From NCBI GenBank assembly GCA_964276515.1, contig OZ193910.1:5704001-5768000 (forward strand): 64,000 bases of DNA, in the 5' to 3' direction. Under the pieces are notes generated by a model, which had not been told where the DNA came from, did no database searches, and saw only the letters and a program-made list of their open reading frames with translations. Position 1 is the first letter of the stretch, and each line of letters begins with the position of its first letter. The translations under genes and the position numbers were made by a program. Positions 1-36,050 of this stretch are shown one piece after another. Origin of the DNA: Gordius albopunctatus. Taxonomy: Eukaryota.

Positions 1-3000
1 ATTTTGTTTCCTCAGGCACCACCATATTAAATCGCGGGGGACCGTGTCATAAGCTTTCTCCAAGTCAATAAAAACCATATGTAGGTCTTTCCTCTTTTCA
101 CCATACTTATCCATCATTTGTCTTAGGGCGAAGATTGGGTCGATTGTGGATTTGCCGGCCACGAATCCGAATTGATTAGCCGATATTTCCACCTCGTCTT
201 TCAGCTTTGTTACTATGACCCTTTTCATAAGCTTCAAGTAGTGGCAAGTTAGCTTGATACCTCTGTAATTGCGGCAGTCCTGAGGGTCTCTTTTGCCTTT
301 AAATAAGGGTATACTCGTGCTTGCTCTCCATTTATTAGGGATACGATCTTCTACCAATATCTTGTTAAGGAGGTTCGTCATGGTGGTGACTCCTTCTTCA
401 CGACATACGAGCAATGCTTTCATGGGTATTCCATCTGGACCATTTGCTTTTCCTTTTTGCATCTTGTTCATTTCTCTCCTAACCTCATTCTCCTGAAAGA
501 GTTCGACCATACTTATATTTGGCTCAATTTCGGGAAGGGGATTCTTGTCATTTGCAATATTCATAAGTTTCTTAAAATATCCTTTTCATCACTTCTTTCG
601 GCTTGAATAAGGTTTGACCCTTCTCGCTTTTGACTATTTTAAGAACTCCGACATCGCGACTTTTCTTCTCCCTTATCTCGGCCAATTTTTACATAAGCCT
701 ATCGCCCCCTTTATGATCGAGTTTGTTTGCCATCTCGGTGTACGCGGCATTCTTCGCTTTTGCAACGGCCTATTTTGCGACCCTCTTTGCGTACCTGTAC
801 TCTTGATAATCCTCCGCCTTTTTTGATTTGTCACCGTCTATATAGATTTTTCTTTCTTACGATGAAATCTTTAACCGATTGATCCCACCACCATAGTTCC
901 CTATTCATAGCTTTACCTCCTTTGGTCTGCCTAGAACACGAATCGCTGTTTTCTTAATGTCCTTAGATAGCGTCTCCCAGTCTTCGTCTACGTCCCTTTG
1001 CAACTTACTTGCCCGCAAGAGTGATGAGACTTTTTGTTGGTATTCTTTGTTCGTCGACGTATCCTTTAGCCTTTCGTATCGAATTCGTGGTCCATAGACC
1101 TTTCTTCTTTAGGGAAATACTCTTCTGTCAAGATCCATAACAAGGGGACGATGTTGCCTGGCGATTTCTTCTCCCTGTATTACTTTGCAATCCTTGATAC
1201 TCCATAAGTCCTTTCGCCGTATAAACAAATAGTCGATTTGACTAAAATGCTTCCCACTTCTATAGGTCACAATATGATCTTCGCGCTTTTGAAAATAGGT
1301 GTTAACGATCGCCATGTCATATGCTTGGGATAATTGGAGAAGTTTTTCACCTTCTTTGTTCTTCAGACCATGCCCATAGCCTCCATAATTGCGTTCATAT
1401 CCGAGGCGATCTTTCCCAACGTGAGCGTTGAAATCTTCCCCAATAATTAGCCTTTCTTCCTGTCCTATTCCTTGTATTTCCTTTTCCAATGAATCGAAGA
1501 ATATGTCTTTCTCTGATTCCAAACATCCAATTTGGGAAGCATATGCTAGTGTTGCGATCTCGTCTCGGTCTCGAAAGCAAAATCTCGTCTCGGTCTAGAA
1601 CAATCTCGTCTCGACGAGAATTCTCGTCTCGTTTCGACTTTTAAAAATTATATCAAATATTTTTTTCTGACTCTTATAAATTATTATATAAGATATAAAT
1701 GGGTCAGAATGGAACCAAATATTTATCTCAAACCCCAAAACACAAGATAGATGGGTATCTTAAGGTAGGAAGCATTATTAGAGGTGTTATATACTACTTG
1801 CCTCGAAGGTATAAAGTTGCTAAACAATAACTTTTATTTCCTGGCTAAGCCTCAATAAAAGGATAAAGTTCATAATATCATCATATTTTAACATAATGAA
1901 TTTATTTAGATCTTACTTAATAACGATAAAATAGTGACAAAAATTAGAGAGTAAACTTTTGAAGATATCATTATTTATAACAAGTAATTATCTGGACAAT
2001 GTAAATACAATAAAATAGGCATTTTTGTCGGAAGAACATAAAAGTTTTAAGATCTAACGTTAATTGCACACATATAACTTCAAAACATAAAATTTTATTT
2101 AAAGCACAATTTACACTTCCCCATTTTATTTGATTCATCCTGGATACTGTGAAATGTTAGAGCAGCTTGCTCTTTTTTGTGTTGGATGATGAACTTGTTG
2201 CGCATAAACTCATTATAGGTCTAAAAATTTATATTATATATATGGTATACAAATAAGTAACAAATATTTAATTAATACTCAAATACCCTAAGGGCTACTA
2301 ACACTATGTTGTCTATTAAGATTTTATTACAAATTTGAAATTTGCGCGAAGCGGATAAATAGGTGCGTAAGTAATGTACTATCAAAAGTTTCAAAATGAT
2401 ATTAATTTGCATTTAATACCCTTAATTTAAATCTCAAAAAATAAAAATTCTTAATTAGCTAAATGAAAACTTAATAGATAAAAATTAAAGTCGAGATCTC
2501 GCCGATAAAATCTCGTCTCGTCGCGAGGTCAAAATTCTCGTCTCGATCTCGACTCAATTTTTAAAAATCTCAGACGAGACCGAGATTTTTCTCGGTTTTT
2601 CCGCATCACTAGCATATGCGCACATAACGGTTAGGAGTCTCCCTTGATCTGCAATCTTCATCCACATTAACCTGTCGGAACAACGCTTGACTTCCATCAC
2701 CTTGTCCTTGAACGATTCTCTTAGAACAATACTGACCCCATTTCTACGATTTGGTGACCCACTGTAGAAAAGCTTGTATCCTTCTCCTAATTCCCGAACT
2801 TTCGTTCCGTTCCACCTCGTCTCTTGTAGGCAGGCGATGTGTACCTTTCTTCCTTTTAGCATCTGTGCAACCTCGATGCTCTTCCCCGTCAACGTTCTCA
2901 CATTTCAGCACGTAATTCGCATTCTTTCCACAACTAGTTTCCTTAACCGCCTTTGTTGTGAGTTAGGCAGTAACCCTAGTGTATTTTTCACATTGCACGG

Positions 3001-3108
3001 GCGAGGTATGCAGTGCGCATCGTTTGTGGTGGACGCCCTAATCTTTTCTTGTAAATTCTTGTTTGAAACTATCATAATTTTGGAATTGATTTTTATAGCC
3101 GATTTCCG
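1..3108 (-). mobile_element. RTE-clade non-LTR retrotransposon (APE endonuclease + start of RT), decayed, runs off window start, interrupted by a hAT MITE
   Basis: Minus-strand ORFs 2554-2901 (IACLQETRW...GYKLFYSG...NGV) and 1109-1522 (IIGEDFNAHVG...SQIDY...QHRPL) are typical APE segments. Bases 1-500 translate on minus to RT N-terminal motifs (ANGPDGIP, NYRGIKL, NQFGF, FIDLEKAYD). Stops and frameshifts are present. Confidence 0.9.
1547..2611. mobile_element. Non-autonomous hAT-type element (MITE) inserted in the RTE LINE
   Basis: Perfect 8-bp TSD GCATATGC (1539-1546 and 2612-2619). 10-bp TIR TAGTGTTGCG/CGCATCACTA with 1 mismatch. Subterminal TCTCGTCTCG repeats at both ends. The paralogous LINE near 35549 shows the empty site. 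Confidence 0.92.
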
Positions 3109-3109
3109 A

Positions 3110-3323
3110 CAAATGAGAAAAATTCGCTTCCCAATATTGAGCCAAACATAAGTATAGTCGAACTATTTCAGGAGGATGAAGTAAGGACAAAAAAGTTGTA
3201 AAAAGAAAAAGCTAATGGCCCAAACAGAATAAGTATTGAAACATTGCTCGGATGTCGCGAAGAACTAGTTACGCCACGAAGAACCTTTTCAACAAGATAT
3301 TGGTAGAAAAGCAAATTCCTAAT
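3110..3323 (+). mobile_element. RTE LINE RT fragment, part 1 (5' flank of the hepadna-like insertion)
   Basis: Aligns by eye to the reverse complement of ~335-553 and ends at ...NKILVEKQIPN. Confidence 0.8.
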
Positions 3324-3355
3324 CGTTCCTCTCGCGTACTACTTACCCCTTGACG
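3322..3355 (+). repeat. Left 34-bp direct repeat of the RT element
   Basis: ATCGTTCCTCTCGCGTACTACTTACCCCTTGACG, 32/34 identical to 6002-6035. Confidence 0.95.
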
Positions 3356-3459
3356 CTCGTTAGTGTGAAAATTTTTTTTATTTTACCCCCTTAAACGACA
3401 ATATCCCCTTAAATAAATATTTTTCCAAGTCCACTTCCCAAATTAACACTACCGAGCCC

Positions 3460-4092
3460 ATGAACTCCCCCAATGATAAGGATTCGATCACTGCAAACGC
3501 TGAAGGTAACGCTAATAGGTCGGATCCAGCAATGACACTGATCCTGAATAGGCTAGCCGAAATGGATGCCAAGATCGAAAGAAATATCCTGGGAAGGAGC
3601 GGAGAAACGATCGATATGGCGGATCGGCCACATTGGGCACCGTCCCAGCCGACATAATCGGTGACTATGACCCGCACGGAACTGGAAGCACTCCTTGCGA
3701 GCGAACGAGCTAGAGCAGTCAACGTCCCCAGCTCTAACGTTGAAATACTCAAGTTACGTCTCAAGGGCCTTAGGGAAGCAGTAGAGACAAATTATTCAAT
3801 TTCGGCTCATCAGAAACATGAAGCTGAGTTCTTTCTCAGTCTTGGGGAATTGATCAATGACTACAACAAGACAATAGACAAATTCTCGGACAGAGTCCGC
3901 ACCATTGCCATGGCTTCGTATTACGGTTGGCAAGCCGTCACAGGAAAATCAAAAGATTGGGCAGAGAAGATGGGCATGGGGCAGTACACTGAGCCCGTCC
4001 AGCTTTTTCGGCCGCCTAATCGGTTCAATGCTCCGAGGAAGAAAGGCTCTTACTCGAAAGGGCCGCCTGCGCCTCTGGCGGAACGAACGTAG
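3460..4092 (+). pseudogene. ORF1, gag/core-like protein (~210 aa) with one internal stop
   Basis: ORFs 3460-3657 and 3661-4092 are in the same frame, separated by a single TAA. Predicted helical, with motif RVRTIAMASYYGWQAV and a basic/Pro-rich C-terminus. Confidence 0.6.
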
Positions 4093-5927
4093 ATACGTGA
4101 GGACGGTAGCGGTGACTCTCGGCTGAGGTGTTAACACGCCGAGGTCGGTGAGGGATGGTTCTATTCCTACTTGGCTTAATAACTACACTGCCATTGCTAG
4201 GAGTATCGCTTTGAATACCATCTCTCCCGACGATGGTCCGGAGTTGGAGGAGCCGATTCATCCTACCAACGCGCCGCTACCCGAACGAACTAATGTGCCG
4301 GGACATCTCCATGAACAATGGACGGAGGTGGGCATGGATAGCGACAGCCCACCTATCATTAGCGAACCGTCCAATATCCCCTCTTTCCCCTCCCACCCCT
4401 TATCCTCTTATTCACATTTTACTCTACCCCTATCCATACGGACCACAATTCTGAAACCGCACTTCAGGCAATCCCGATTTACCCATAGGATTGCGACGCA
4501 TGGCTTCAAGCCTAAATTGTCACGGATGACCATAGCCGACAACAAGGGAAGATATCACATCCCTCGATATGTAAAAGCTATCCCCCGTGAGCACAAAACC
4601 CTGGTTGACGAAATAGTGCTGAGCAATGTTGTTCGTAGAAACACGGAGGCAATTCCGTCGCCAATGTATTTTATTCACAAAAGTGACGGTTCCCCTCGTC
4701 TTATTGCGGACCTCTCGCAAATATCAAAAAATTTCATCAAATATCCTTTCACTTTAAAGTCGATTCCGCTTATCGCTTCATCTCTATCGGAAGCCCGTAT
4801 ATGACCAAGATCGACATGAAAGCTGCCTTTTTCTCCATTTCTCTGCCACCAGAATCCTCAAAATTCTTTGGATTCCGTTATAGAAGGAACAAATATTCGT
4901 ACAAAGTGCTACCCATGGGGGCGGGCTTCTCGCCCTTTGTTCTACAGCAGGTGATGCTTGACTTGTGTATTAAGGCCGTAACGAAGTGTAAGTACAATGT
5001 CTATCTGGGCAACATACTCATCTATGGTCGGTCCCAGACGATGGTCAAAGCAGACACCCGAAGATTCCTCTACTTAGCTAAATTCTGGAACCTGACAATC
5101 AACTACGGAAAATCGTCAGTAGAACCTCGTACCATCATGGACTATTTGGGTATCAATGTCAACTTAGAGAATCACACACTCAGGGTGAACCAGAAGTTTG
5201 TGTCAAAAATCGATGCCGCCATACAAATTATGTCCCACTTCCTGGCCACCAACAAGCTTCCACATCCCTTGGTCTCACAAACCTGCCTTGGAATTCTCAC
5301 GCATTACACATACATGCTGACAGGCTGGTCAAATTTCCTCTCTCAAGCGTACAACCTATGCCTATCAGGAGACCCCATACGATTCCACACGGATTGGCTG
5401 ATCAAGAAAATACTTATGGTACAAAACCACTTATCCACTCCTTTCCGAATGAAATACGAGACCAACGGTTTCACAGCCGGTGATGCTTCCACGTCCCACA
5501 TTGGCTTATTTTATCGAGGATCTGTCCTCTCCATTGCCAAGGGGGACGCTCTCGCTATCTTCGGCTGCCAAGACCTTATTCCCACTATCAACCTACTTGA
5601 ACTCGTCCCCATCCCCCTCGCTTACATTAAGGCCATGATCGACACTCCACAAATAAACACCAAGGTCCTTACGGACTCAAAAAGAGCGTTTTAAATCATG
5701 AAAAAGGGGTCGCACATGCGCCGCACCTGCAACTAGCTTTCACAAAAATCTGTAACAAGATGGGCCTAGATCCCATGCTCCGGATGAAGCAGAATATGGA
5801 GTGGGTATCTACCGACTGTAACCCGGCCGACGTACCTTCCCGGGAAAACTTCTTCGACGATGCCCAACTAGGAAGGATAGTTTTTTGGTCACGCTCGAAC
5901 CTTTCACACACCCAGAACAACAACTAG
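4028..5927 (+). pseudogene. ORF2, reverse transcriptase + RNase H (pol), frameshifted, catalytic motif mutated
   Basis: RT motifs YFIHKSDGSPRLIADLSQIS, KIDMKAAFFSI, KVLPMGAGFSPFVLQQ, YLGN (at the YxDD position), YLG. RNase H motifs GDAS, INLLEL, LTDS, and WVSTDCNPADVPSR (shifted frame, ending TAG 5925-5927). Breaks at 4124 (TGA), ~4800 (frameshift) and ~5692-5710 (stop and frameshift). Start position uncertain. Confidence 0.88.
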
Positions 5928-6001
5928 TTTGCTGAACGATAAAGACCATGAAAGATCCTAAGGATTACACTATATCTTATGACATGTTTTTTACCACTTT
6001 T

Positions 6002-6035
6002 ATCGTTTCTCTCGCGTACTACTTAACCCTTGACG
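6002..6035 (+). repeat. Right 34-bp direct repeat of the RT element
   Basis: ATCGTTTCTCTCGCGTACTACTTAACCCTTGACG, followed by a partial third copy (TCGCGTATTACT, ~6038-6049). Confidence 0.95.
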
Positions 6036-6135
6036 TTTCGCGTATTACTCATAATTATATATCTTTTTGTAATGTATGGATAGATATAAAATAAAACAAG
6101 AGATAGGGGGATATCCTGAATAGGACTCTCCCTTA

Positions 6136-6790
6136 TACTTATTTAAAGGCATAGGAGACTGGCAGTTACAGAGGTTTCAAGCTAACTTGCCACTCCTTGA
6201 ATCTATGGAAAGTATCTTAGTAACAAGGCTGAAAAACAAGGTGGAAATATCGGCTAACCAATTCGGATATGTGGCCGGAAAATCCACATTTGACCCAATC
6301 TTCGCACTAAGACAAATGATGGATAAATATGGGGAAAAGAGAGGGTACCACATGGCCATTATCGATTTGGAGAAAGCTTGTGACACGGTCACTCTCGATT
6401 TAAAATGGTGGTACTGGAGAAAACAAAATATCCCTGATGCATATATACGGCTTATGAAAAAATATTTAAGGACAAATTCGTGCGTTAGGACGAGAGTTGG
6501 AGACTTTAAACTTTTTCGAGTTAAAATTGGATTACATCAAGTATCTGCTCTAAGTCCTTGTTTATTTAATTAAATTATAGACACGATAACAAGAGACATC
6601 CAAAAGCATCACAATGGTGTATGAAATATGCCAAATCAGGTATTCAAAGAAGTAGAAAAGTGGACAAAGCGCTTAGCTGGATATGGTTTAAAAGTCGAAG
6701 ATAGAAAAGCGGTATACGTGGAAATTAACGTTACAGGCACCCCTGCTTTAGGTATGAAGATTTGTTGCTGTTTGATGGAAGGGAGACATG
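6136..6790 (+). mobile_element. RTE LINE RT fragment, part 2
   Basis: ORF 6187-6573 contains NQFGYVAGKST, IDLEKACD and GLHQVSALSPCLF. It continues the LINE broken at 3323. Confidence 0.88.
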
Positions 6791-8570: not shown

Positions 8571-11500
8571 TCAAAAGGCAGCATCAAAATCATCTGAGTT
8601 ATAGCCCCTGAGTGAATCTTTGGCAAATAAAGGATTTACCTCATCCAAAAAATCCCGCTCAGCATTGCATTGTAGACCAGTTTCTGATTTAGATTGGGTA
8701 TCAGTGTCGTACTTGCAATAATCTTCAGATTGAAATATTTCATCTAAAAAGGATAGGGAACCTAGCCTAGACCTTGAATCATTGTTTTGGTTATTAGTAA
8801 AGGATATAACACCCGTTTCTCCGTTTAGAGGATTATTTAGAGGGCTGAACATGAGATCATCTTGGAGAGAATCTTAAAATAACATTTAACGAAAAAAAAT
8901 TAACTAAAATACTGAATTCAAAGAGGCGTTCTTCTTCTTCGCAAGTCTCTGGAAAAGTAGCAAATGTAGAATGAGCGTAGTTTCTAAGGTCGTCAAAATT
9001 TGTAGTATACGAGCAAATGCCAGATGTGGGCGTAGGTGAAGAGATCAATGATCCATCTGAGGATGGGCTTAAAACCCCGGGGTTACCATTCCTTCTATAG
9101 GTTAGGCTAAATGACGCAGAGACCGCTATGTTTTGATTACCGTCTTTCTTAAGCGAGCTATTTATTGACACATAACTTCGCTTGGGTATTAAATTTTCGA
9201 CGTTGGATTTAATTGGATAAAATCCCGCAGTGTCTAATGAACTAAAACAATGGAGTTTGGCGATATCTCGACTATTTTGAGACTTATCTATATTATTGCT
9301 TCCACCATTTATCATGTAGTTGGCATATGCAAAATTATTGAGAAGCAGCTTGTTAGTAGCATCGTTCAAAGTATAATTAAATTTTAGGGGCGATAAGCAA
9401 GATTCATAAATTGATGAAAACGTTTTGTTTGAATGAAAAATATTTGCAGCAGTATTAAATTGTTGTGGCAACGAAAGAGGTTCTTTAACTTTATTTAAAA
9501 TCGTAAAATAGGCTGAATTCTCATCACTATCTCTGGTATTTAGCAAGGATAAGTTAGGTGTGGCACTTAAGTAGCCCTGATCTATTGAAGTTCCTGGTGA
9601 GGTAATATTTGAGCTTATAACTTTTGTTTTGAGTAGAGGAGGCAGCGTTTGAAAAATTGGTGAGCTTGAAAGGTTATTTTGATAATTCAATTTATTCGTA
9701 GTTTTTATGTCTTTAAACACATTACAACTATTTGGGATAGCTGCCAAAGCTTCATTATTTGTACATGTTGATGGCGCTGAATTTAGAAAGTATATTACAA
9801 AGTTTTTAAATATAGCAAACAGATGCTCTAGCTAGCTAATGTTGACATACAGATAAATGTTATTATTAATTAATTTACCGATCTTGTAACTTTGTCCCTG
9901 AGTCTTAAGCTTTTTGTTATGAAATCTTCGCATCTTATTTTCTCTGGATCTCCTATTTTGAAACCACACCTGTAATATAAAGTTTAACGTGTAAGTATTC
10001 GCTCAATCTAATTATTATTATTATAGTTATGATTTTTATTTAATAAACGTGTATTTTAGCCTCTTCTATGTTAATTCTGAAAGACAATCGTTTTTTCTCC
10101 TCGGAATTTGGGTAATGATTTTCTTGAAATAGATCCTCCAAATTATTAAGTTGTTCCTGTGTAAACTGTGTCCGTTTTCTTTGTTTGCTTTGAGAAATGT
10201 TATACACACTTACACCGTTACTTTGGTTATTACTGTTTTGATCATTGATGTAGTTTGAATAATGATCATCGTTGTTATTTATCTGAGGACTAGAACTTGA
10301 ATACTTACCGCATTTATTCATCATTGAATTCATTTGCAACCATACATCATCGTCTTTTAAATCTAATATTTGTGAAATCAAAATTACATAAAGATGCTTT
10401 ATAAAATTAGTAAGTTGTATGAAAATGAGATAGAAACTAAATAACGACTACATTTTACATAATAAAAATGCAAAAAGAGGGCATTGAGAAGATAAATTTA
10501 AAGACGAAACATTTAATTCTTAGTTCTTATAAGGTTACTGTCTAAATTAATATACAGATCATGTCGTCAAAATGATTTAACTAACAGTTTGTTGCACTAC
10601 CGACTCAATATAGTCATAAGGGATAGCATTAGCACGAATATTCCACATTTTTAGAAGTTAGCCACAAAAATAATTTTGTGTCCATTTTATTTACGTTTAA
10701 AATCACCTTTGATATGTAATTTGTATCTTTTATTATAAAAACATATTTAAAGTTCTACCTAGGATCACATTCATCTCGTATAAGTTTAATTTTAATTTCA
10801 TCTGTAAAGTAAAATTTTAACACAATTTACTGATAAAACCATATTTGATTTGATATTGAACATGGTAGCCGGGGGAGGAGGGGGGACGGTAACTGGTTCA
10901 AATAGCGTTTAAAATTAAAAAAAATTAGCCTTATGCCTTCCCCATGACTAAACATTAATTAATATAGAAACTAATTGAAAAATTTATATGATAATCTAAA
11001 TTTTTATTCTTTAAATTGAATATTAATTTGAAATTGAATATTCATTTCTCATCACCAAATTCAAATTTATATGGACATTATAAAATATTTTGCAAATCCG
11101 TTTAAGACAAATGTGTAATTTAATTAAATTTTTTGAGGGAGGTTATTAGAGAGTTAGCCCAAAATCCTCAAAACCTTTATTCTGATATAACTTTTAATTT
11201 CATTTTGATATTGAGTCTTCAGGCTTGAGGCTAACGACCTGCATAATTTATTTTAAGACCCGGCCCGAGCCCAAATTTTTAAATTTTCAGGGACTTTGGT
11301 CGGGCCCGGAATTTTAATAAATAAAGAAATCTAAAAATAACCCTAAAACATGTTCCTCGTATAAATTTATTAAATAATTTAACGCATAAATTAAGACTAT
11401 AAATGAATTTAACTTCAACTAGCGTAGGTAATATCACTAATTATTATCTGCGATATCCTCATCTTCAGAAACTAAATTTAACTTTTGGCAATTTTTCTAA

Positions 11501-14879: not shown

Positions 14880-17716
14880 TCAATACAATTTTTTAGAGGA
14901 ACACTATTTTTACGATTCATTGGTCTTATAACAAATAAGAATCTTTAGTCCTTTTGTTGAAAAATATTTGACAGTCCCTTAGAATTAAAAAAATTTTTAT
15001 ACTAATAATCATGCTGTGTCATTCCTGATTAATAATTCAATTATATTGCAGTTTCATAAATTAACTTATCACAGTGAATTAACTATTAAGAGACTCGTAA
15101 TTGACTAGAAATATTTTTAAACCAAATTTGTTATATAAATAATCCTATATAGCCCATTATAACGTATTAGTTATAACTTGGTTAAATTTTTAAATTATTA
15201 TTAATTATAATAAAAAACTGTTAAGGGTAAAAGGTAATGAATAGTTGAACTCTAAGCAGTGGCTTAGTTGCCTAAAGGGGGGGGGGGGGGGTAAATTTTG
15301 TTTCAACAAATTTCGATTAAATAAAAATTAATTTAAAATTTTACATTCAATATCTACGATATTAATAATATCTTTAATATTATGTTTGTACTTAGAACAA
15401 GCATTAACAGTTAAATTATTTATATTTAATGACCCAATTTTCTCTGTGATCGTTCTTACAGCGACGCAATTTGCAAAGAGCTCCTTTCAATTTTTCTCAA
15501 TATGTCCATCAGTGCCATTGTTTGAACTGGAGATGAGTACGGGCCTTTTAAGCATAATTGGCCCAGCAGTAAAAACATTTAAAACCCCTGTCTCAACCCA
15601 AGACCGTTAAGTTTTTTTGCAAAGTACGGGCCCAGCCTAGACCCTTTCTGAAAAAAATGGAAACTTCGATAATAAAATCATGAGTCTCAAACGGACTGTT
15701 ATTTCTTCCAACAAGCGATCCGCCGTTTAACTTTCACTAGTAGCACTTGTAGCTGCATAAAACAATTTGTGTCAAATAGAATTGAAAACTCAAAGCATGG
15801 TTATTTTTATTTACAAAGATTAACTAGTTTTGTTTTTCAAATAAGAACTTTTGGGATCCACTTGTAAAAAAATCACAAGTTATATGAATTAATGATGAAA
15901 AATTATTATTGATAAATTCATAATTAAAATTAAATGATTATAAAACTTGATAAACATCATTATTTTTATACAATAAAATTACAAAAAGAAAAACATGTTT
16001 TAAATATTTTTTTGGCTAGAGCTGGGCTTACTTATATTTACGCCTAACTTGAGCTCGTTTCTTCCAAGCCCGGCCCGTAATATTTTTAGCAAAAACGATA
16101 ACATTAACTGGCAAAAATTTCATAAACTTAATTTTGGCGATGGTAACTACATTTGCTTTAAAAAATTGTGTGTGCCTATGTCATGAGTAGACTTTAAAAA
16201 TCAATTAACTAAATCACGTTGAATAACAATTCTTAGTTGACTTTTATCGTCAATCTTTATTGTTAATATAGCGCCCTCAATCTCTCAGTAAAAGTAATTC
16301 TATGAAGGAAGCACGAATGAAGAACGCAAGACGTTTTTTTTGTAAAAAATCATTTATTTGACGTATTAATAACCCTAAAAAATATATTAAATGGTATAGA
16401 AAAAATTACATAGACGACTAAAAAAATATAAAGGATGGCATTGATCCGTGTATGGATATCGTGTCGGATTTAACGATTTCCATTGTATTATTTGTATTTA
16501 TTTACTATGCTTTTCTCTGGTGGTATTAACACTCGCAGTTCTAAAAACAAGGAATCTAAAGTAAATTTATATAAGCATGTTAAACGCTTAGAAAGGTATG
16601 AATTTATTAATTACCTTGATTTACATTTGGCCTGTGTAAGCGTCTTCCACTACTATTTTAGAAATGGAGATAATTTTTAAGATATAATTAAGAAGTAAAT
16701 TTCTTTTCATTTTAATACACGCATTAGTATATTTTAATCTAAAATTAAATCTCAAATTAATTAAGGTAATTAATTGTTTCCATCAGCACTACACTAAAAT
16801 GCGTCCCATTAATATCATTGAGTTTTTCCATGTAATTCCGAAAAAATTTAAAAATTTTGTCAGGGGCCCCCTTCCCTTGTTTACGACTTTAGATTGATAA
16901 ATGTTATATTATAATTTTCGCCCCAACGATAATAGTCATACTGCAAATATAATCCGCATAGTCTTACAAATGAAATTTTATAATTAATACGTATTTTTAT
17001 AATTTATTACTTACACTCTAAAAAGGCCAACAAATTTTTTCAACCCGAACCCGACCCGACCCGAAAGTAAAAAAAGTTAATATTGTAAAATTAATTTTAA
17101 TAGATTTAAATGGCAAAAAATTATTATCTCCCAAAAATGGACAAAACGTTATATGTCTATCATTTCCGGGTCACATGCTAAAAAATATAATATATATAAA
17201 TAAACTCGGGCCTTCGGCCCTCGTGGGAAGGGGGGAAGGGAAGGGGGGACGACTCATCTATACTCCGTATAAACGTAGCATATTTGCTATGCAATTTATG
17301 GGCGTTATATGCAAAATGTTTATACAAATTTTCCATCTAATTAAAAAATATGGGCGAGAAAGGTGGGAAGGGGCGAAAATGCCTATAGAGGGGTATTAAA
17401 TGCAAAATGATTAGTTAATTATTTATACAAATTTTCCATTTAATTAAAAAAAATGGCCCTCGCCGGGATTCGAACCCACATTAAATAGAGGCATAAGCCT
17501 TTGTAGGGGGGCACAGGGACCCATATCAGTAGAAGCATAGGCACTTCTAGGGGAGAGCATAGGGCAATTTATCCATGTTAACCTATTAAAATACGAAAAA
17601 TTTCGATTTATTTGGCCAATGATCATTTTTTTAATTGGTCAGTAGCCAACGGAAGGTCAAAAAGTCATATTATACATGGTATTAACAAGAACATAATATT
17701 AATTTAATTAAAAAAA

Positions 17717-20086
17717 CTCGGGCCTTCGGCCCTCGTGGGAAGGGGGAAGGGGAGGAGGGGAAGGAAGGGGGAACTCATCTACACTCCGTATAAATGTATC
17801 ATATTTGCTATGCAATTTATGGAAATACTTACGTGAATATTGCAAAACGAAGGTTGGAAGCACTAAATAAGTGTATATGCCAAATATCATAAAGGGGGAG
17901 AGAGGGAGCGAAGGGGAAGCTTTATGGTTAGTTAAATTCTACGGGAGTTGTATTACCAAAAAGTCATAATAGCAATGGTAGGAACAGGAATAATCATAAT
18001 AGTCAAAAAAAACGAAAAAAAAATTTTCGAATCACATTTTGGCCAAAGGTCATTTTTTCCATTGGTCAGCAGCCAGGACACGGTAAAAGTGGATATAAAT
18101 TCATAATAGTCAAAAAAAACGAAAAAAAAGTTTTCGAATCACATTTTGGCCAATGGTTATTTTATTCCATTGGTCAGCAGCCAGCGGACGGCCAAAAAGT
18201 CATAATAGCAATGGTAGGAACAGGAACAATCATAATAGTCAAAAAAAACGGAAAAAATAATTTCGATTCACATTTTGGCCAATGGTCATTTTTTTCCATT
18301 GGTCAGCAGCCAGGACACGGTAAAAGTGGATATAAATTTATAACAGTCAAAAAAAACGAAAAAAAATTTTCGAATCACATTTTGGCCAATGGTCATTTTA
18401 TTCCATTGGTCAGCAGCCAGCGGACGGCCAAAAAGTCATAATAGCAATGGTAGGAACAGGAACAATCATAATATTCAAAAAAAACGAAAAAATAAACTCG
18501 GATACACATTTTGGCCAATGGTCATTTTTTTCCATTGGTCAGCAGCCAGGACACGGTAAAAGTGGATATAAATTCATAACAGTAAAAAAAAACGAAAAAA
18601 AAGTTTTCGAATCACATTTTGGCCAATGGTCATTTTATTCCATTGGTCAGCAGCCAGCGGACGGCCAAAAAGTCATAATAGCAATGGTAGGAACAGGAAC
18701 AATCATAATAGTCAAAAAAAACGGAAAAAATAATTTCGATTCACATTTTGGCCAATGGTCATTTTTTTCCATTGGTCAGCAGCCAGGACACGGTAAAAGT
18801 GGATATAAATTCATAACAGTCAAAAAAAACGAAAAAAAAATTTTCGAATCATATTTTGGCCAATGGTCATTTTTTCCATCGGTCAGGAGCCAGCGGACGG
18901 CCAAAAAGTCATAATAGCAATGGTAGGAACAGGAACAATCATAATAGTCAAAAAAAACGAAAAATAAACTCGGATACACATTTTGGCCAATGGTCATTTT
19001 TTTCATTGATCAGCAGCCAGCGGACGGCCAAAAAGTCTTATTATCATTGATAGTAACAAGAACAATCATAAGAGTCAAAAAAACTCCGGGATTCTAACCC
19101 AAAAACTAGATAAATTGCATAGCAATTATTAAAAAGTATAGGGTAATTATCAATGTTAACCTATTCAAAAACGAACAAAAAATTTTGATTTATTTGGCCA
19201 ATGGTAATTTTTTTCAATTATCAATGTTAACTTATTCAAAAAGGAAAAACGAAAAATTAGGATTTATTTGGCCAATGTTCATTTTTTCATTGGTCAGTAG
19301 CCAGCGGACGGTCAAAAAGTCATATTATCAATGGTATTAACAAGAACAAAATATTAAATTAATTAAAAAAATAAAAATTTTGCCCTCTCCGGGATTCGAA
19401 CCCACATTAAATAGAGGCATAAGCCTTTGGAGGGGAACAGGGAACCATATAAATAGAGCCATAGGCCCTTGTAGGGGAGGGCATAGGGTAATTATCAATG
19501 TTAAACTATTCAAAAACGAAAAATTAAAAATTTCGATTTATCTGGTAAGTGGTCATTTTTTCATTGGTCAGTAGCCTGCGGACGGTCAAAAATTCATATT
19601 ATCAATGGTATTAACAAGAACAATATATTAATTTAATTTAAAAAAAATTAAAATTTTTGTCCTCTCCGGGTCTCGAACCATCAATTTAGAACGTTCGCCG
19701 GGATTCAAACCCACATTAAATAGAGGCATAAGCCTTTGGAGGGGAACAGGGAACCATATAAATAGAGCCATAGGCCCTTGTAGGGGACGGCATAGGGTAA
19801 TTATCAATGTTAAACTATTCAAAAACGAAAAATTAAAAATTTCGATTATCTGGCCAGTGGTCATTTTTTCATTGGTCAGTAGCCTGCGGACGGTCAAAAA
19901 GTCATATTATCAATGGTATTAACAAGAAAAAAATATTAATTTAATTAAAAAAAAAAAAAAAATTTTGTCCTCTCCGGGTCTCGAACCCGCAACCTCCAGG
20001 TCGGGAAGCTGGTGTAAATAACTTGGTAGACGGACGGACGGACGGACGGACAACCAAAAACGAGCCCATAAATTGCATAGCAATTA
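17717..20086 (-). mobile_element. HINE-like element, inner copy nested in an A/T-run of the outer copy
   Basis: Same hairpin start and subTIR at 17805. (GGAC)n microsatellite at ~20029-20051. Terminal GCCCATAAATTGCATAGCAATT at 20064-20085. The outer repeat unit resumes right after. Confidence 0.75.
17956..19080. repeat. Tandem satellite array, ~236-bp unit (dimer of ~127 and ~109 bp subunits), ~4.5 copies
   Basis: Unit start CCAAAAAGTCATAATAGCAATGG at 17956, 18192, 18428, 18665 and 18901; partial variant at 19028. Confidence 0.95.
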
Positions 20087-22285
20087 AAAGTGTTTATGGC
20101 CTTTCCGGGTTTCGATCAAGAACCTCCACGTCAGTAAGCCGTTGCTACAACCACTCTTACCATGCTGGCATTAAAATAAAGGAAGTTTTTGTTACTTATA
20201 TAGATAATGAAATAATAAAGATGTGTTTTATTTATGTTTATTATATAATAAAATGAAACAATAATAGAAAATCAATATATTATAGATAATTCAACAAATA
20301 TCAACAAGAACAAAATATTAATTTAATTTAAAAATAGGCACTTGTAGGAGAGGGCATAGGGTAATTATCAACGTTAACCTATTAAAAAACGAAAATAATG
20401 ATTTTGGGAGGAGCATTTTGAAATTTTAGCCTTTACTTAAGCAAGATGGCCAATGTTAATTTTTTTTATTGGTCAGTACCAAAAGACGGTCTATAAATAC
20501 ATGCGAGTCAAAAAAACAAAAACAAAAAATTCGAATCACAATTTGGCTAATGGTCATTTTTTTCCATTGATCCGTAACAAGAGACTGTCTATAAATACAT
20601 ACGAGTCAAAAAAAACGAAAAAAAATTTTAAATCACAATTTGGCCAATGGTCATTTTTTCCATTGGTCAGTACCAAGAGATACTCTATAAGTCAATGTTA
20701 GCCAAAAAAACGGAAAAAAATTTTTTGATGCTCATTTTGGCCAATGGTCATTTTTTAATTGGTCAGTAGACAGCGGACGGCCAATAAGTCATATTATCAA
20801 TGGTATTAACAGGAACAATCATAAGAGTCAAAAAAACCGGAAAAAAAATTCGATTCACACTTTGGCCAATGGTCATTTTTTCTAGTGGTCAGTAGCCAGC
20901 CGACGGCCAAAAAGTCACATTATCAATGGTATGAACAATAACTATATATTAATTTTTAAAAAAAATATAAAAAATTTTTATAAATTTTTTGGCCTCTCCG
21001 GGATTCGAACCACAGATCTGGATAGGCATAATGTAGGATGTAGGGGGGGGGCACAGGGACCCATATCAGTAGAGGCATAGGCTCTGTTAGGGGAGGGCAT
21101 AGGGTAATTGTCAATGTTAGCCAAAAAAAACGAAGAAAAAAATTCGATTCACTCTTTGGCCAATGGTCATTTTTTCCATTGGTCAGCAGCCGGCGGACGG
21201 CCAAAAAGTCATATTATCAATGGTACGAACAATTAATTAAAAAAAATTTTTTTTTTAATTTAAAAAATTTTTTGGCCTCTCCGGGATTCGAACCCACATC
21301 AGTAGAAGAGAGGCATACTCCTTTGTAGGAGGGCGGGGCACAGGGACCCATATCAGGAGAGGCATAGGCACTTCTAGGGGAGGGCGTCTATAAATCAATG
21401 TTAGTCAAAAATAAACGAAAAAAAAATTTTTTCTTCACATTTGGCCAATGGTCATTTTTTGCCATTGGTCACTAGCCAGCGGACGGGCAAAAGCTATATT
21501 ATCAATGCTACCAACAATAACTATATATTAATTTAAAGAAAAAAATATAAAAAAATTTCATTTTGGCCAATGGTCATTTTTTCCATTGGTCAGTAGCCAG
21601 CGGACAGTCAATAAGCCATATTATCAATGGTAGTAACAAGAAAAATATATTAATTTAAAAAAAAATAAAATTTGGCAGATTCGAACCCACAAACTAGTTA
21701 AACTATAATCCGAACAAAAAATAAACAACGTGACAACACGAACAGCGTGACATAAACAAATGGAAAGTGAGCCCATAAATTGCAAACCCGCAATTTTTTC
21801 AGATATAAAATGCTTATATTCTTAAATGAGTTTGTCTGTATTATCAGGCAATTTTGATTTTAAGGCAAATAACGGTTGTGGCAATATTGTACGAAAATTA
21901 AAGGAGAAAATTTGATTATTATTTCAAAAATTCTTATTTTTCAAATCATGTTTGTAAAATATGATAAATTAATTTTATTCTAGTGTATAAGTTAGGCGTT
22001 TTTAAAAAAATATAAAATGGGAATCAAGAAAATCATAAGTTTTATGATATCAATTACATGTTCATTATAATTTAGCATCCATCAAGATATTTTACTTTTC
22101 TGAGTTTAAAAATGGGCAATTCCAAAATTCAGATATAACATAAAAGAAATAAATTTTAATGAATGTATGAGATAAATTAATCGACCATTTCGGTATTAAT
22201 TAAAAAATATTATATGAAATAGCATTAATTTAAAAGATATGTCTATTATTCAATATAAAATTTAACGTTCAACCCGACCCGGACC

Positions 22286-33582: not shown

Positions 33583-34349
33583 TTATTAAAGTCAAGGATT
33601 TTAAATTAAAATAAAGTCACTAATTTAAATATTATGATTCATAGATTCGATATTTTTGTCTTGAACTGAATTTAAAAATGGAAGATTTTAGGTCAGACAT
33701 GCTTCTATGGTTGAACATCAACCAATGCTACCAATTTTATTTGAATAATAGAGTTTTTGGGAATTCCAGCCATCAGTGCCACTAGTGAGGGCACTTTCAA
33801 TAAGGCAGTACTCTTATGGAAGAGAAAAGGACTAGATAAATGCCCAATAAAATAGATAGTATTTTATTTTCATTTAAGATATATTGAATTATAATTTTGT
33901 ATGTAAATCAAGAATTTGTGTGGCGTAGATTAGTAATTTCATATAATTTAAAAGAATTTTACAACTATGGGCTTGTTTTTAATTAGTGCAGGCCTGGTGC
34001 GGCGCAATTTTATAGTTAAATCTGTCGGCTGGCTACGGTCCAAAAAATATATTTGTGCGGGTATGGACGGGTCGCAACTCAATATTTTGGCCCATTCAGA
34101 TCGCTATAAACAACTATCACAATTTTCATAAAAAAGAGTAACATAAGCCAAATTTTGTAATTGCTATATTTATAATTTAATTGTTCTAGCTGTTTTAACA
34201 TGCTTATTAAAACTTATTTTGTTAGCTTTTTGCCGCGTGGGAAAATAATCGTCTACGATTTCACTATGAACGCCTTCTATTTAATTAATACATTTGTTAT
34301 TTTCGTGCGAATTAATTCACAATTCGCGCGTCATCACGAACGCGCGGTT

Positions 34350-36050
34350 AAGGGTATAATCGTGCTTCTCCATTGATTAGGAAATGGCCTTTCTACCAAT
34401 ATCTTGTTAAAGGCTCCTTCTTCACGACATCCGAGCAATGCTTCCATAGGTATTCCATCTGGACAATTTGCTTTTCCTTTTTGCATCTTGTTCATTAGTG
34501 TCCTAACTTCATCTTCCCGAATGAATTCGACCATATTTATGATTTGCTCAATATCGGGAAGGGAATCTCTGTCATTTGCAATATTTATAAGTTCCTTAAA
34601 ATATCCTTTCCATTACTTCCTTCGGTTTGAATAAGGTTTGACCCTTCTCGTTTTTGACTATTTTAAGAACTCCAACATCGCGACTTTTCTTCTCCCTTAT
34701 CTTGGCCAATTTGTACATAAGCCTATCGCCCCCTTTATGATCCAGTATGTTTGCCATTTCGGTATACGTGGCATTTTTCGCTATTGCAACGGCCTTTTTT
34801 GCGGCTCTCTTAGCGTCCCTATATTCTTGATAATCCTCACACTTTTTTGATTTATGCCACAGTCTATATAGATTTTCTTTTAATAAAATCCCTAACCGAT
34901 TGATTACATCACCATAGTTCCCTATTAATAGCTTTGCCTCCTTTGGTCTGTCCTAGAACACGAATCACTGTTTCCTTTATGTCCTTAGTCAGCGTCTCCC
35001 AATTGTCGTCTACGCCCCTTTGCAAATTCCTTGTACATAAGAGTGAAGAGGCTTTTTGATGGTATTTTTCGTTCCTTGATTTATCATTTGTCTTTCGTAT
35101 TGAATTCGAGATACATAGACCTTTCTTCTTTCGGGAATTACTCTTCTGTCAAGATTCATAACAAGGGGACGATGTTGCCTGGCGATCGGTATTACTTTAC
35201 AATCCTTGATATTCCACAAGTCTTTTCGCTGTATAAGCAAATAGTCAATTTGACTAAAATGCTTCCCACTTATATAAGTCACAATATGATCCTCGCGTTT
35301 TTGAAAATAGGTGTTAACGATTGGCATGTCTGATGCTTGGAATACTTGGAGAATGGTTTTCCCTTCTTTGTTCTTCAGAGAATGTCTATAGCCTCCATGA
35401 TTGCGTTCATACCTGAGGCGGTTTTTTCCTAAGTGGGCATTGAAGTCCGTCCCAATAATTAGCTTTCTTCATGTCATATTCCTTGTATTTCCTTTTTTAA
35501 TGAATCGAAGAATATATCTTTCTCTTTTTCCTTACACCCAATTTGGGGAGCATACGCGCACATAATCGTTAGGAGGCCCACTTGATCTACAATTTTCACC
35601 CACATTAGCTTGTGTGAACAACGCTTGACTCCAACTACCTTGTCCCTCTGTTTCTACTATTTGGTAACCCACTGTAGAATGGCTTATATCCTTCTCCTAA
35701 CTCCCGGCCTTTGGATGCGTTCCATCTCGTCTCTTATAGGCAGGCGATATATATCTTTCTTCTTTTTAGCATTTTTGCGACCTCGATGCTCTTCCCCGTC
35801 CACGTTTCGACATCCAGGCCGTTATTCGCATTCTTTCCACAACTAATTTCCTTAACCGCCTTCGTTGTGAGTTGGGAAATATCCCTAGTCTGTTTTTCAC
35901 ATAGCACGGGGGGGGGGATTCAGTATGCGTCGTTTGTGAAGGACGCCCTAGTTCTCTCGTGAAAAATTTTGCTTGAAACCATCATGATTTTGAAGCTGAT
36001 TTTTATAGCCGGGTTTCGAACTGACGCCAACCCTCAAGTTTTTGCACACG
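34350..36050 (-). mobile_element. RTE LINE, second decayed copy of the 1-3108 family (5' part)
   Basis: Collinear nucleotide similarity to 305-3108 without the MITE. ORFs 35010-35327 and 34334-34534 match APE and RT segments. Confidence 0.9.

Follow-up and report, generated by a model that had tools for sequence, protein, structure and literature searches.

A decayed, apparently integrase-free and probably HEART-related retroelement with direct repeats inside a LINE of Gordius albopunctatus

How does a retroelement without a recognisable integrase come to lie inside another element, with a direct repeat at its left end, a second copy somewhat inside its right end and no target site duplication (TSD)? 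The question is raised by a decayed, 2.8 kb element with ORF1 and a reverse transcriptase-RNase H (RT-RNase H) gene, which interrupts an RTE LINE in a 64,000-nucleotide stretch of Gordius albopunctatus DNA (contig OZ193910.1, positions 5,704,001 to 5,768,000; hereafter the window). We report that this locus is best read as the end-joining capture of a cDNA with terminal redundancy, with a probability of roughly 0.55; an integrase-free, multi-copy, HEART-like element would have entered a break in the LINE through microhomology-mediated end joining (MMEJ) by the host. HEART elements are hepadnavirus-like retroelements (Gong and Han 2018, as described in PMC12691608, PMC11551314 and PMC12440569). 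The coordinates of the features are collected in Table 1.

Table 1. Features of the element and of the interrupted LINE, in window positions
Feature	Positions	Strand	Remarks
Host RTE LINE before the insertion, decayed copy	3110..3324	+	From paralog alignment and contig loose ends at 3324
Left direct repeat	3322..3355	+	First 3 bases (ATC) common to the LINE
5' untranslated region (UTR)	3356..3459	+	3356-3374 likely part of a longer repeat in a relative
ORF1	3460..4092	+	210 codons interrupted by one stop (3655-3657); without a match to any family
pol: Pro/Ser/acidic N-terminal stretch, RT, RNase H	4127..5927	+	
Predicted stem-bulge-stem hairpin in the pol N-terminal stretch	4319..4373	+	z -3.6, 0/200; best of 94 windows scanned
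Right direct repeat	6002..6035	+	32/34 identical to the left repeat
3' tail, ~100 bp	6036..6132	+	Also in one or more diverged relatives; precise 3' end uncertain (6113-6138)
Host RTE LINE after the insertion, RT fragment	6133..6573	+	6133-6138 ambiguous

The junctions were defined by blastn self-comparison of the window, which holds two paralogs of the host LINE on the minus strand, A (1-3109) and B (34349-36019). The left LINE part (3110-3323/3324) is 77% identical to 334-554 of paralog A (minus) and 74% identical to 34375-34578 of paralog B, and the right part (6138-6429) is 81% identical to 1-307 of paralog A. In the alignment with paralog A the LINE ends at 3323 and picks up again at 6134 with 20 bp absent, in agreement with the original prediction of a LINE split after 3323 that resumes near 6136 with about 20 target bases missing and none duplicated. 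The loss is 18 bp if 6133-6138 is counted as LINE and 25 bp if the LINE restarts at 6138. We also used contigs from two runs (X1 and X2) of one study, aligned at 80%, where one of the runs may be the source of the window itself. In paralog B and in the majority of the LINE-contig loose ends (48 in X1 and 21 in X2) the LINE extends through 3324, and the ATC at 3322-3324, common to the LINE and the left repeat, constitutes a 3-bp microhomology at the left junction. The final 35 bases of the left flank share no exact 8-mer with 6095-6150; the sole common 7-mer sits 27 bases from the junction, and the local alignment of the flanks in the TSD search was equalled in 40 of 1000 shuffles. Junctions of this sort, with microhomology, a small loss and no TSD, are commonplace where insertion proceeds without a nuclease; this one is seen in a single copy.

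Paralog B itself breaks off about 5 bases beyond the restart point of the host LINE, at TTAA followed by a GC-rich stretch (34349 and upstream); the remainder of this LINE was not found in the window and the break is perhaps another insertion. The boundary at 3109/3110 lies between two different LINE copies that abut head to head without a spacer. Elsewhere in the window 17200-21700 holds degenerate tandem repeats whose periods are close to 118 and 236 bp, and 10040-10447 (minus) is presumably, judged by its motif, a homeobox-like exon of a host gene.

The 34-bp direct repeats expected at the element termini are present, 2680 bp apart (blastn E 3e-7 in the window self-comparison), with the left one at the junction and the right one about 100 bp inside, as predicted, ending 97 bp upstream of 6133. 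The partial third copy was located in the tail at 6038-6049 (11/12 to 3332-3343); we consider it real but weak, with 6 of 1000 shuffles as good in a post hoc comparison and, by eye, less likeness to the repeat in the one relative with letters seen. Inverted terminal repeats are absent from the element (218 of 1000 shuffles as good), its tail does not occur a second time, and an Rfam scan gave nothing near threshold, hammerhead included. A Helitron-like or snap-back reading was considered and discarded, the tail hairpins being no better than those of shuffles (35-37/300).

ORF1 had no match in Pfam, in the word search or in the ESM Atlas, and its structure model is helical and of low confidence (pLDDT 45.7); its position suggests a gag- or core-like role. 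A possible likeness of ORF1 to YR elements in a gag-like motif was not supported by phmmer (best E 0.13). The pol frame is broken near 4797-4801 and near 5690, its RT catalytic motif is substituted, and the same frame is also open upstream (3878-4123). Pol matches RVT_1 (Pfam), its RNase H motifs align with those of relatives, and its stop is only 74 bp from the right repeat. YR, integrase, methylase, protease and terminal protein had no Pfam match in the element; for the terminal protein domain this applies to 4127-4801 and to the relatives as well. Six-frame phmmer with the YR and methylase parts of four DIRS proteins gave a best score of 0.2 bits, and a YR was found neither in the element nor elsewhere in the window. 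Having no detectable nuclease of its own, the element would need host repair or a helper.

The summed contig depth over 3862-4441 reaches up to 25x that of the lowest bins of the element, and one X2 contig matches 4316-4389 between two unmatched parts. This region, including the predicted hairpin, is possibly a cis-acting signal or a high-copy derivative.

Among 1.84 billion representatives the three closest proteins (E 2e-41, 2e-40 and 5e-20) are all RT-RNase H proteins of Gordionus sp., and a profile search gave 41 hits, with eight more Gordionus proteins. The Gordionus members, whose pol genes include XP_065317776.1, XP_065315139.1 and XP_065315196.1, are spread over contigs of five different chromosome-scale lengths and form a multi-chromosome family; they match RVT_1 only or, in two fragments, the hepadnaviral family PF00336 weakly (E 0.03 and 0.09), while the window element and the proteins P0001 and P0002 have no PF00336 match. 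The other hits that were classed are mostly DIRS-type RTs, with a minority that carries a DATP/NPAD-type RNase H; 7 of 12 in this minority match PF00336 at E<0.1, four of them above the curated cut-off. Single-protein word searches gave nothing for RT or ORF1, PDB hits were generic RTs, and in the ESM Atlas pol fell to unnamed or RVT_1 eukaryotic clusters at 0.90-0.94. A metagenome scan hit (L001) was a distant gypsy-type LTR element and was discarded. In bioRxiv 2024.06.11.598342, DIRS is reported only in Mermis among the species studied there.

Trees were computed from RT (55 proteins, after P0189 and P0182 were dropped because the motif was not located), RT plus RNase H (41) and RNase H (40), with rows hand-picked from about 200 and group labels taken from RNase H motifs and Pfam. 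In all three the nematomorph group joins the PF00336-type set and not DIRS (support 92, 96 and 99, respectively); these are quick LG+G4 trees with long branches and no named HEART or hepadnavirus among their rows, and placement of the nematomorph group with DIRS was not rejected by an AU test (p 0.4). Profile scores point in the same direction as the trees, the window RT scoring 159 bits with the PF00336-type set against 120-139 and its RNase H 23 against 4-8. The PxxLQ motif is present in 12/12 of the PF00336-type set, 4/4 of the nematomorph group and 2/24 of DIRS, and is also visible by eye in published Ixodes (tick) HEART rows (PMC12691608, supplements 4 and 6). In two respects, the RT-to-RNase H spacing (159-160) and the DAS motif, the element resembles DIRS. 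Taken as a comparison of RT and RNase H, these data lean to the hepadnavirus-related side; a relationship of the element to HEART/hepadnavirus-type elements is likely, and it probably behaves as a HEART-type element does.

The searches also returned unnamed RT proteins with a hepadnavirus-type RNase H (P0016, P0036, P0049, P0061, P0129, P0148, P0193 and others), several with long acidic N-termini and mostly on 2-4 kb contigs (ENA, JGI, Logan). They may represent an under-described HEART-like group.

Other copies of the element were seen in the contigs. Several contigs, 0-19% different, cover the same places, which implies at least 3-4 diverged versions. Evidence on their ends comes from the joints listed, each covered by no more than two short-read contigs that were matched at 80% likeness. 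Two X1 contigs join 6035 to 3414, the shorter side being 67 letters long, so that at least 33 bases found in the window only before the right repeat would also stand before the 5' UTR somewhere (the same joint in X2 has 28 letters on the short side and is uninformative); this joint would correspond to a longer left repeat or to a tandem or circular junction. In a second joint, 3374 to 6065, the right repeat of a relative extends by about 19 bases into the stretch that is UTR in the window and then continues into the tail, and by length the right repeat of the window is 16 bp shorter (hand comparison). A third, 6031 to 3577, leads from the repeat to UTR-like letters, and the repeat thus marks the 5' end in relatives. 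Two long contigs cease matching at 3400 and continue for 306 and 557 letters with no match listed. In single related contigs the repeat appears to be about 53 bp, with at least 33 bp more upstream, and the 100-bp tail recurs.

Relatives are thus likely to have a longer repeat and variable left ends. The 34 bp, taken as a unit in the original prediction, are probably not the functional unit and are likely the clipped remnant of a repeat that measured 53 bp at the least and perhaps 86 bp or more. Long repeats with 34-bp remnants had been named as a finding that would speak against capture, and the roughly 53 bp of the single contigs go part of the way towards it. Variable ends among copies, which had been named as support for end-joining capture, are suggested by the contigs, in which relatives appear to differ at their left ends.

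How might the element have reached its site? The original prediction was that the locus fits neither LTR-integrase nor target-primed insertion and fits capture of a linear cDNA at a double-strand break. The absence of an integrase match and of a TSD agrees with the former; the exclusion of RNA-templated insertion was too strong, because endonuclease-independent retroinsertion also deletes target, as described for L1 (PMC1920257). As for capture, the lack of integrase and recombinase, the missing TSD, the target loss, the 3-bp microhomology and the clipped left repeat all fit, while a single copy cannot tell loss at insertion from an earlier or later deletion. We suggest the following course. 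RNA from the left repeat through the tail would be reverse transcribed, and the terminal repeat would aid strand transfer or stem from a partly tandem template. The linear cDNA would then be captured at a break with trimming of its ends by host MMEJ, which would account for the loss of 18-25 bp and the absent TSD. The repeat would be clipped on the 5' side where the left copy meets the LINE, and about 16 bp would be missing behind the right copy. Linear DNA of hepadnaviruses is joined into double-strand breaks by NHEJ or MMEJ, with deletions at its ends (PMC5408681).

The target loss might instead be separate from a clean insertion made by a recombinase or nuclease acting in trans, through a later microhomology deletion at the left junction or a deletion already present in the LINE. 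A single deletion that ended on the common ATC would account at once for the clipping of the repeat and the loss of target, and the host copy bears 6- and 9-bp deletions of its own. In addition, 5 of the 12 LINE contig rows listed, all without the element, miss 12-28 bp in the same interval (counted by hand), one of them sharing the left break, and given these gaps the loss may be older than the insertion. Against this, deletions of at least 6 bp affect about 3% of the LINE columns in the window (68/2275), and independent deletions of at least 16 bp about 1.5% (34/2275; both hand counts); the lack of a YR in element and window also counts against it, as does the TSD of a nearby MITE. This MITE (1547-2611), which has terminal inverted repeats and which we take from the TSD rule to be hAT-like, serves as a local control: it lies in paralog A, its site is empty in paralog B, and its 8-bp TSD (1539-1546, 2612-2619) is still exact. 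We judge a separate loss unlikely, with enough in its favour to be kept in mind. An ordinary insertion with a degraded TSD of 3-8 bp, for which the element would end near 6113-6121 and 6116-6132 would be altered target, is the least credible of the readings. ATC does recur at 6113-6115, the 17 bases behind it approach the 18 missing in length, and a gapped 7-of-8 likeness of 3317-3323 to 6114-6121 can be seen by eye (it is not the top alignment), but those 17 bases align to neither paralog although the host copy is about 80% alike elsewhere.

Two readings take the repeats as part of a known replication scheme. Because the left copy is at the end and the right copy about 100 bp inside, the layout is that of A1 and A2-B2 in the split direct repeats (A1 ... 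B1 A2 B2) of PAT/Ngaro-like YR retrotransposons (PMC6681497, section 6); the recombinase and B1 would have been lost and the tail would be B2. The predominance of DIRS-type RTs among the hits beyond Gordionus and the AU result are in keeping with this, but the tail does not match 5800-6001 (325 and 386 of 1000 shuffles as good), so that there is no B1/B2 pair, and split direct repeats, which had been offered as one role for the repeats, are not supported. Furthermore, no tail-to-repeat joint is found among the 15 joints listed, trees and motifs lean away from DIRS, and YR integration is described as keeping a trinucleotide at both ends (PMC7192593), in contrast to the loss seen here. We find this origin improbable. 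Still less probable, in our view, is an endogenised hepadnavirus-like episomal virus, with a linear DNA starting from DR1 and DR2 about 100 bp inside the right end. The size of 2.8 kb would suit it, as would hepadnavirus-like PMG-x-G-x-SP and NPAD-x-PSR motifs, whose likeness to HBV is visible in part in published rows. The layout, too, resembles hepadnaviral linear DNA primed at DR1 (PMC5408681). Set against these are the absence of a terminal-protein match and of any family match for ORF1, the length of the repeats (34-53+ bp compared with DRs of 14 nt reported in PMC11551314) and IMG/VR scans that returned no relative. The junction seen in relatives consists of pre-repeat, repeat and 5' UTR and not of tail and repeat, and no epsilon-like fold was found right behind the left repeat (57/300). 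A DR1/DR2-type circle, which predicts a tail-to-repeat junction, is not supported by the same data, no such junction being among the joints listed.

The interest of the locus lies in the family, an apparently integrase-free and probably HEART-related nematomorph retroelement with readable ends. HEART elements are the proposed source of hepadnaviruses (PMC12691608), and their mobilisation is stated to be unresolved in PMC12440569. In the literature covered, which did not extend to the original HEART paper, subscription journals, Repbase and the Figshare files of PMC12440569, where they may be described, we found no such elements in Nematomorpha and no HEART termini. With a family that is multi-copy and has recognisable ends, in a nematomorph assembly of chromosome scale, the movement of HEART elements becomes testable through alignment of the flanks. 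We also put forward, as a speculation that we hold to be doubtful, a nematomorph lineage that is integrase-free and hepadnavirus-related and spreads in the chromosomes solely when host break repair takes up terminally redundant cDNA, so that 5' ends vary, the 3' tail is fixed and target bases are deleted. If true, it would give a first view of how HEART-type elements move and a snapshot between retrotransposons and hepadnaviruses, before terminal protein and core.

Compared with known systems, the element differs from LTR retrotransposons by having no integrase, protease, TG...CA LTRs or 4-6 bp TSD, and from DIRS1-like elements by having no inverted terminal repeats, ICR or methylase domain. 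With PAT, Ngaro and VIPER it has in common ORF1 plus RT-RNase H, a repeat that stands at the left end and again within the right one, and no TSD, but it is without YR and B1/B2 pair and target bases are lost. Penelope-like elements with pseudo-LTR and tail likewise have a short upstream copy of the 3' region, a variable 5' end and a tail at one end (PMC8557442); the RT of the element is instead of the LTR/DIRS/HEART type with RNase H, and its tail is 100 bp compared with 30-40. Neither GIY-YIG nor, in Rfam, a hammerhead was matched, and the classed hits are DIRS, HEART-like or LTR RTs. The Blubervirales (hepadnaviruses, nackednaviruses and proto-nackednaviruses) share the size of about 3 kb, an ORF ahead of pol, an RT-RNase H unaccompanied by integrase, a pair of direct repeats and break capture as the known integration route; the element differs in that it lacks a terminal protein and a recognisable core, its repeats greatly exceed DR1/DR2 in length, and it forms a multi-copy genomic family. 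HEART elements are likewise genomic retroelements of invertebrates with an RT on the hepadnavirus-related side, and the P-F-x-L and P-F-x-[ML]-Q motifs are, by eye, common to the element and the published Ixodes HEART rows; the host here is a nematomorph and not an arthropod, and the RNase H start and spacing of the element are DIRS-like.
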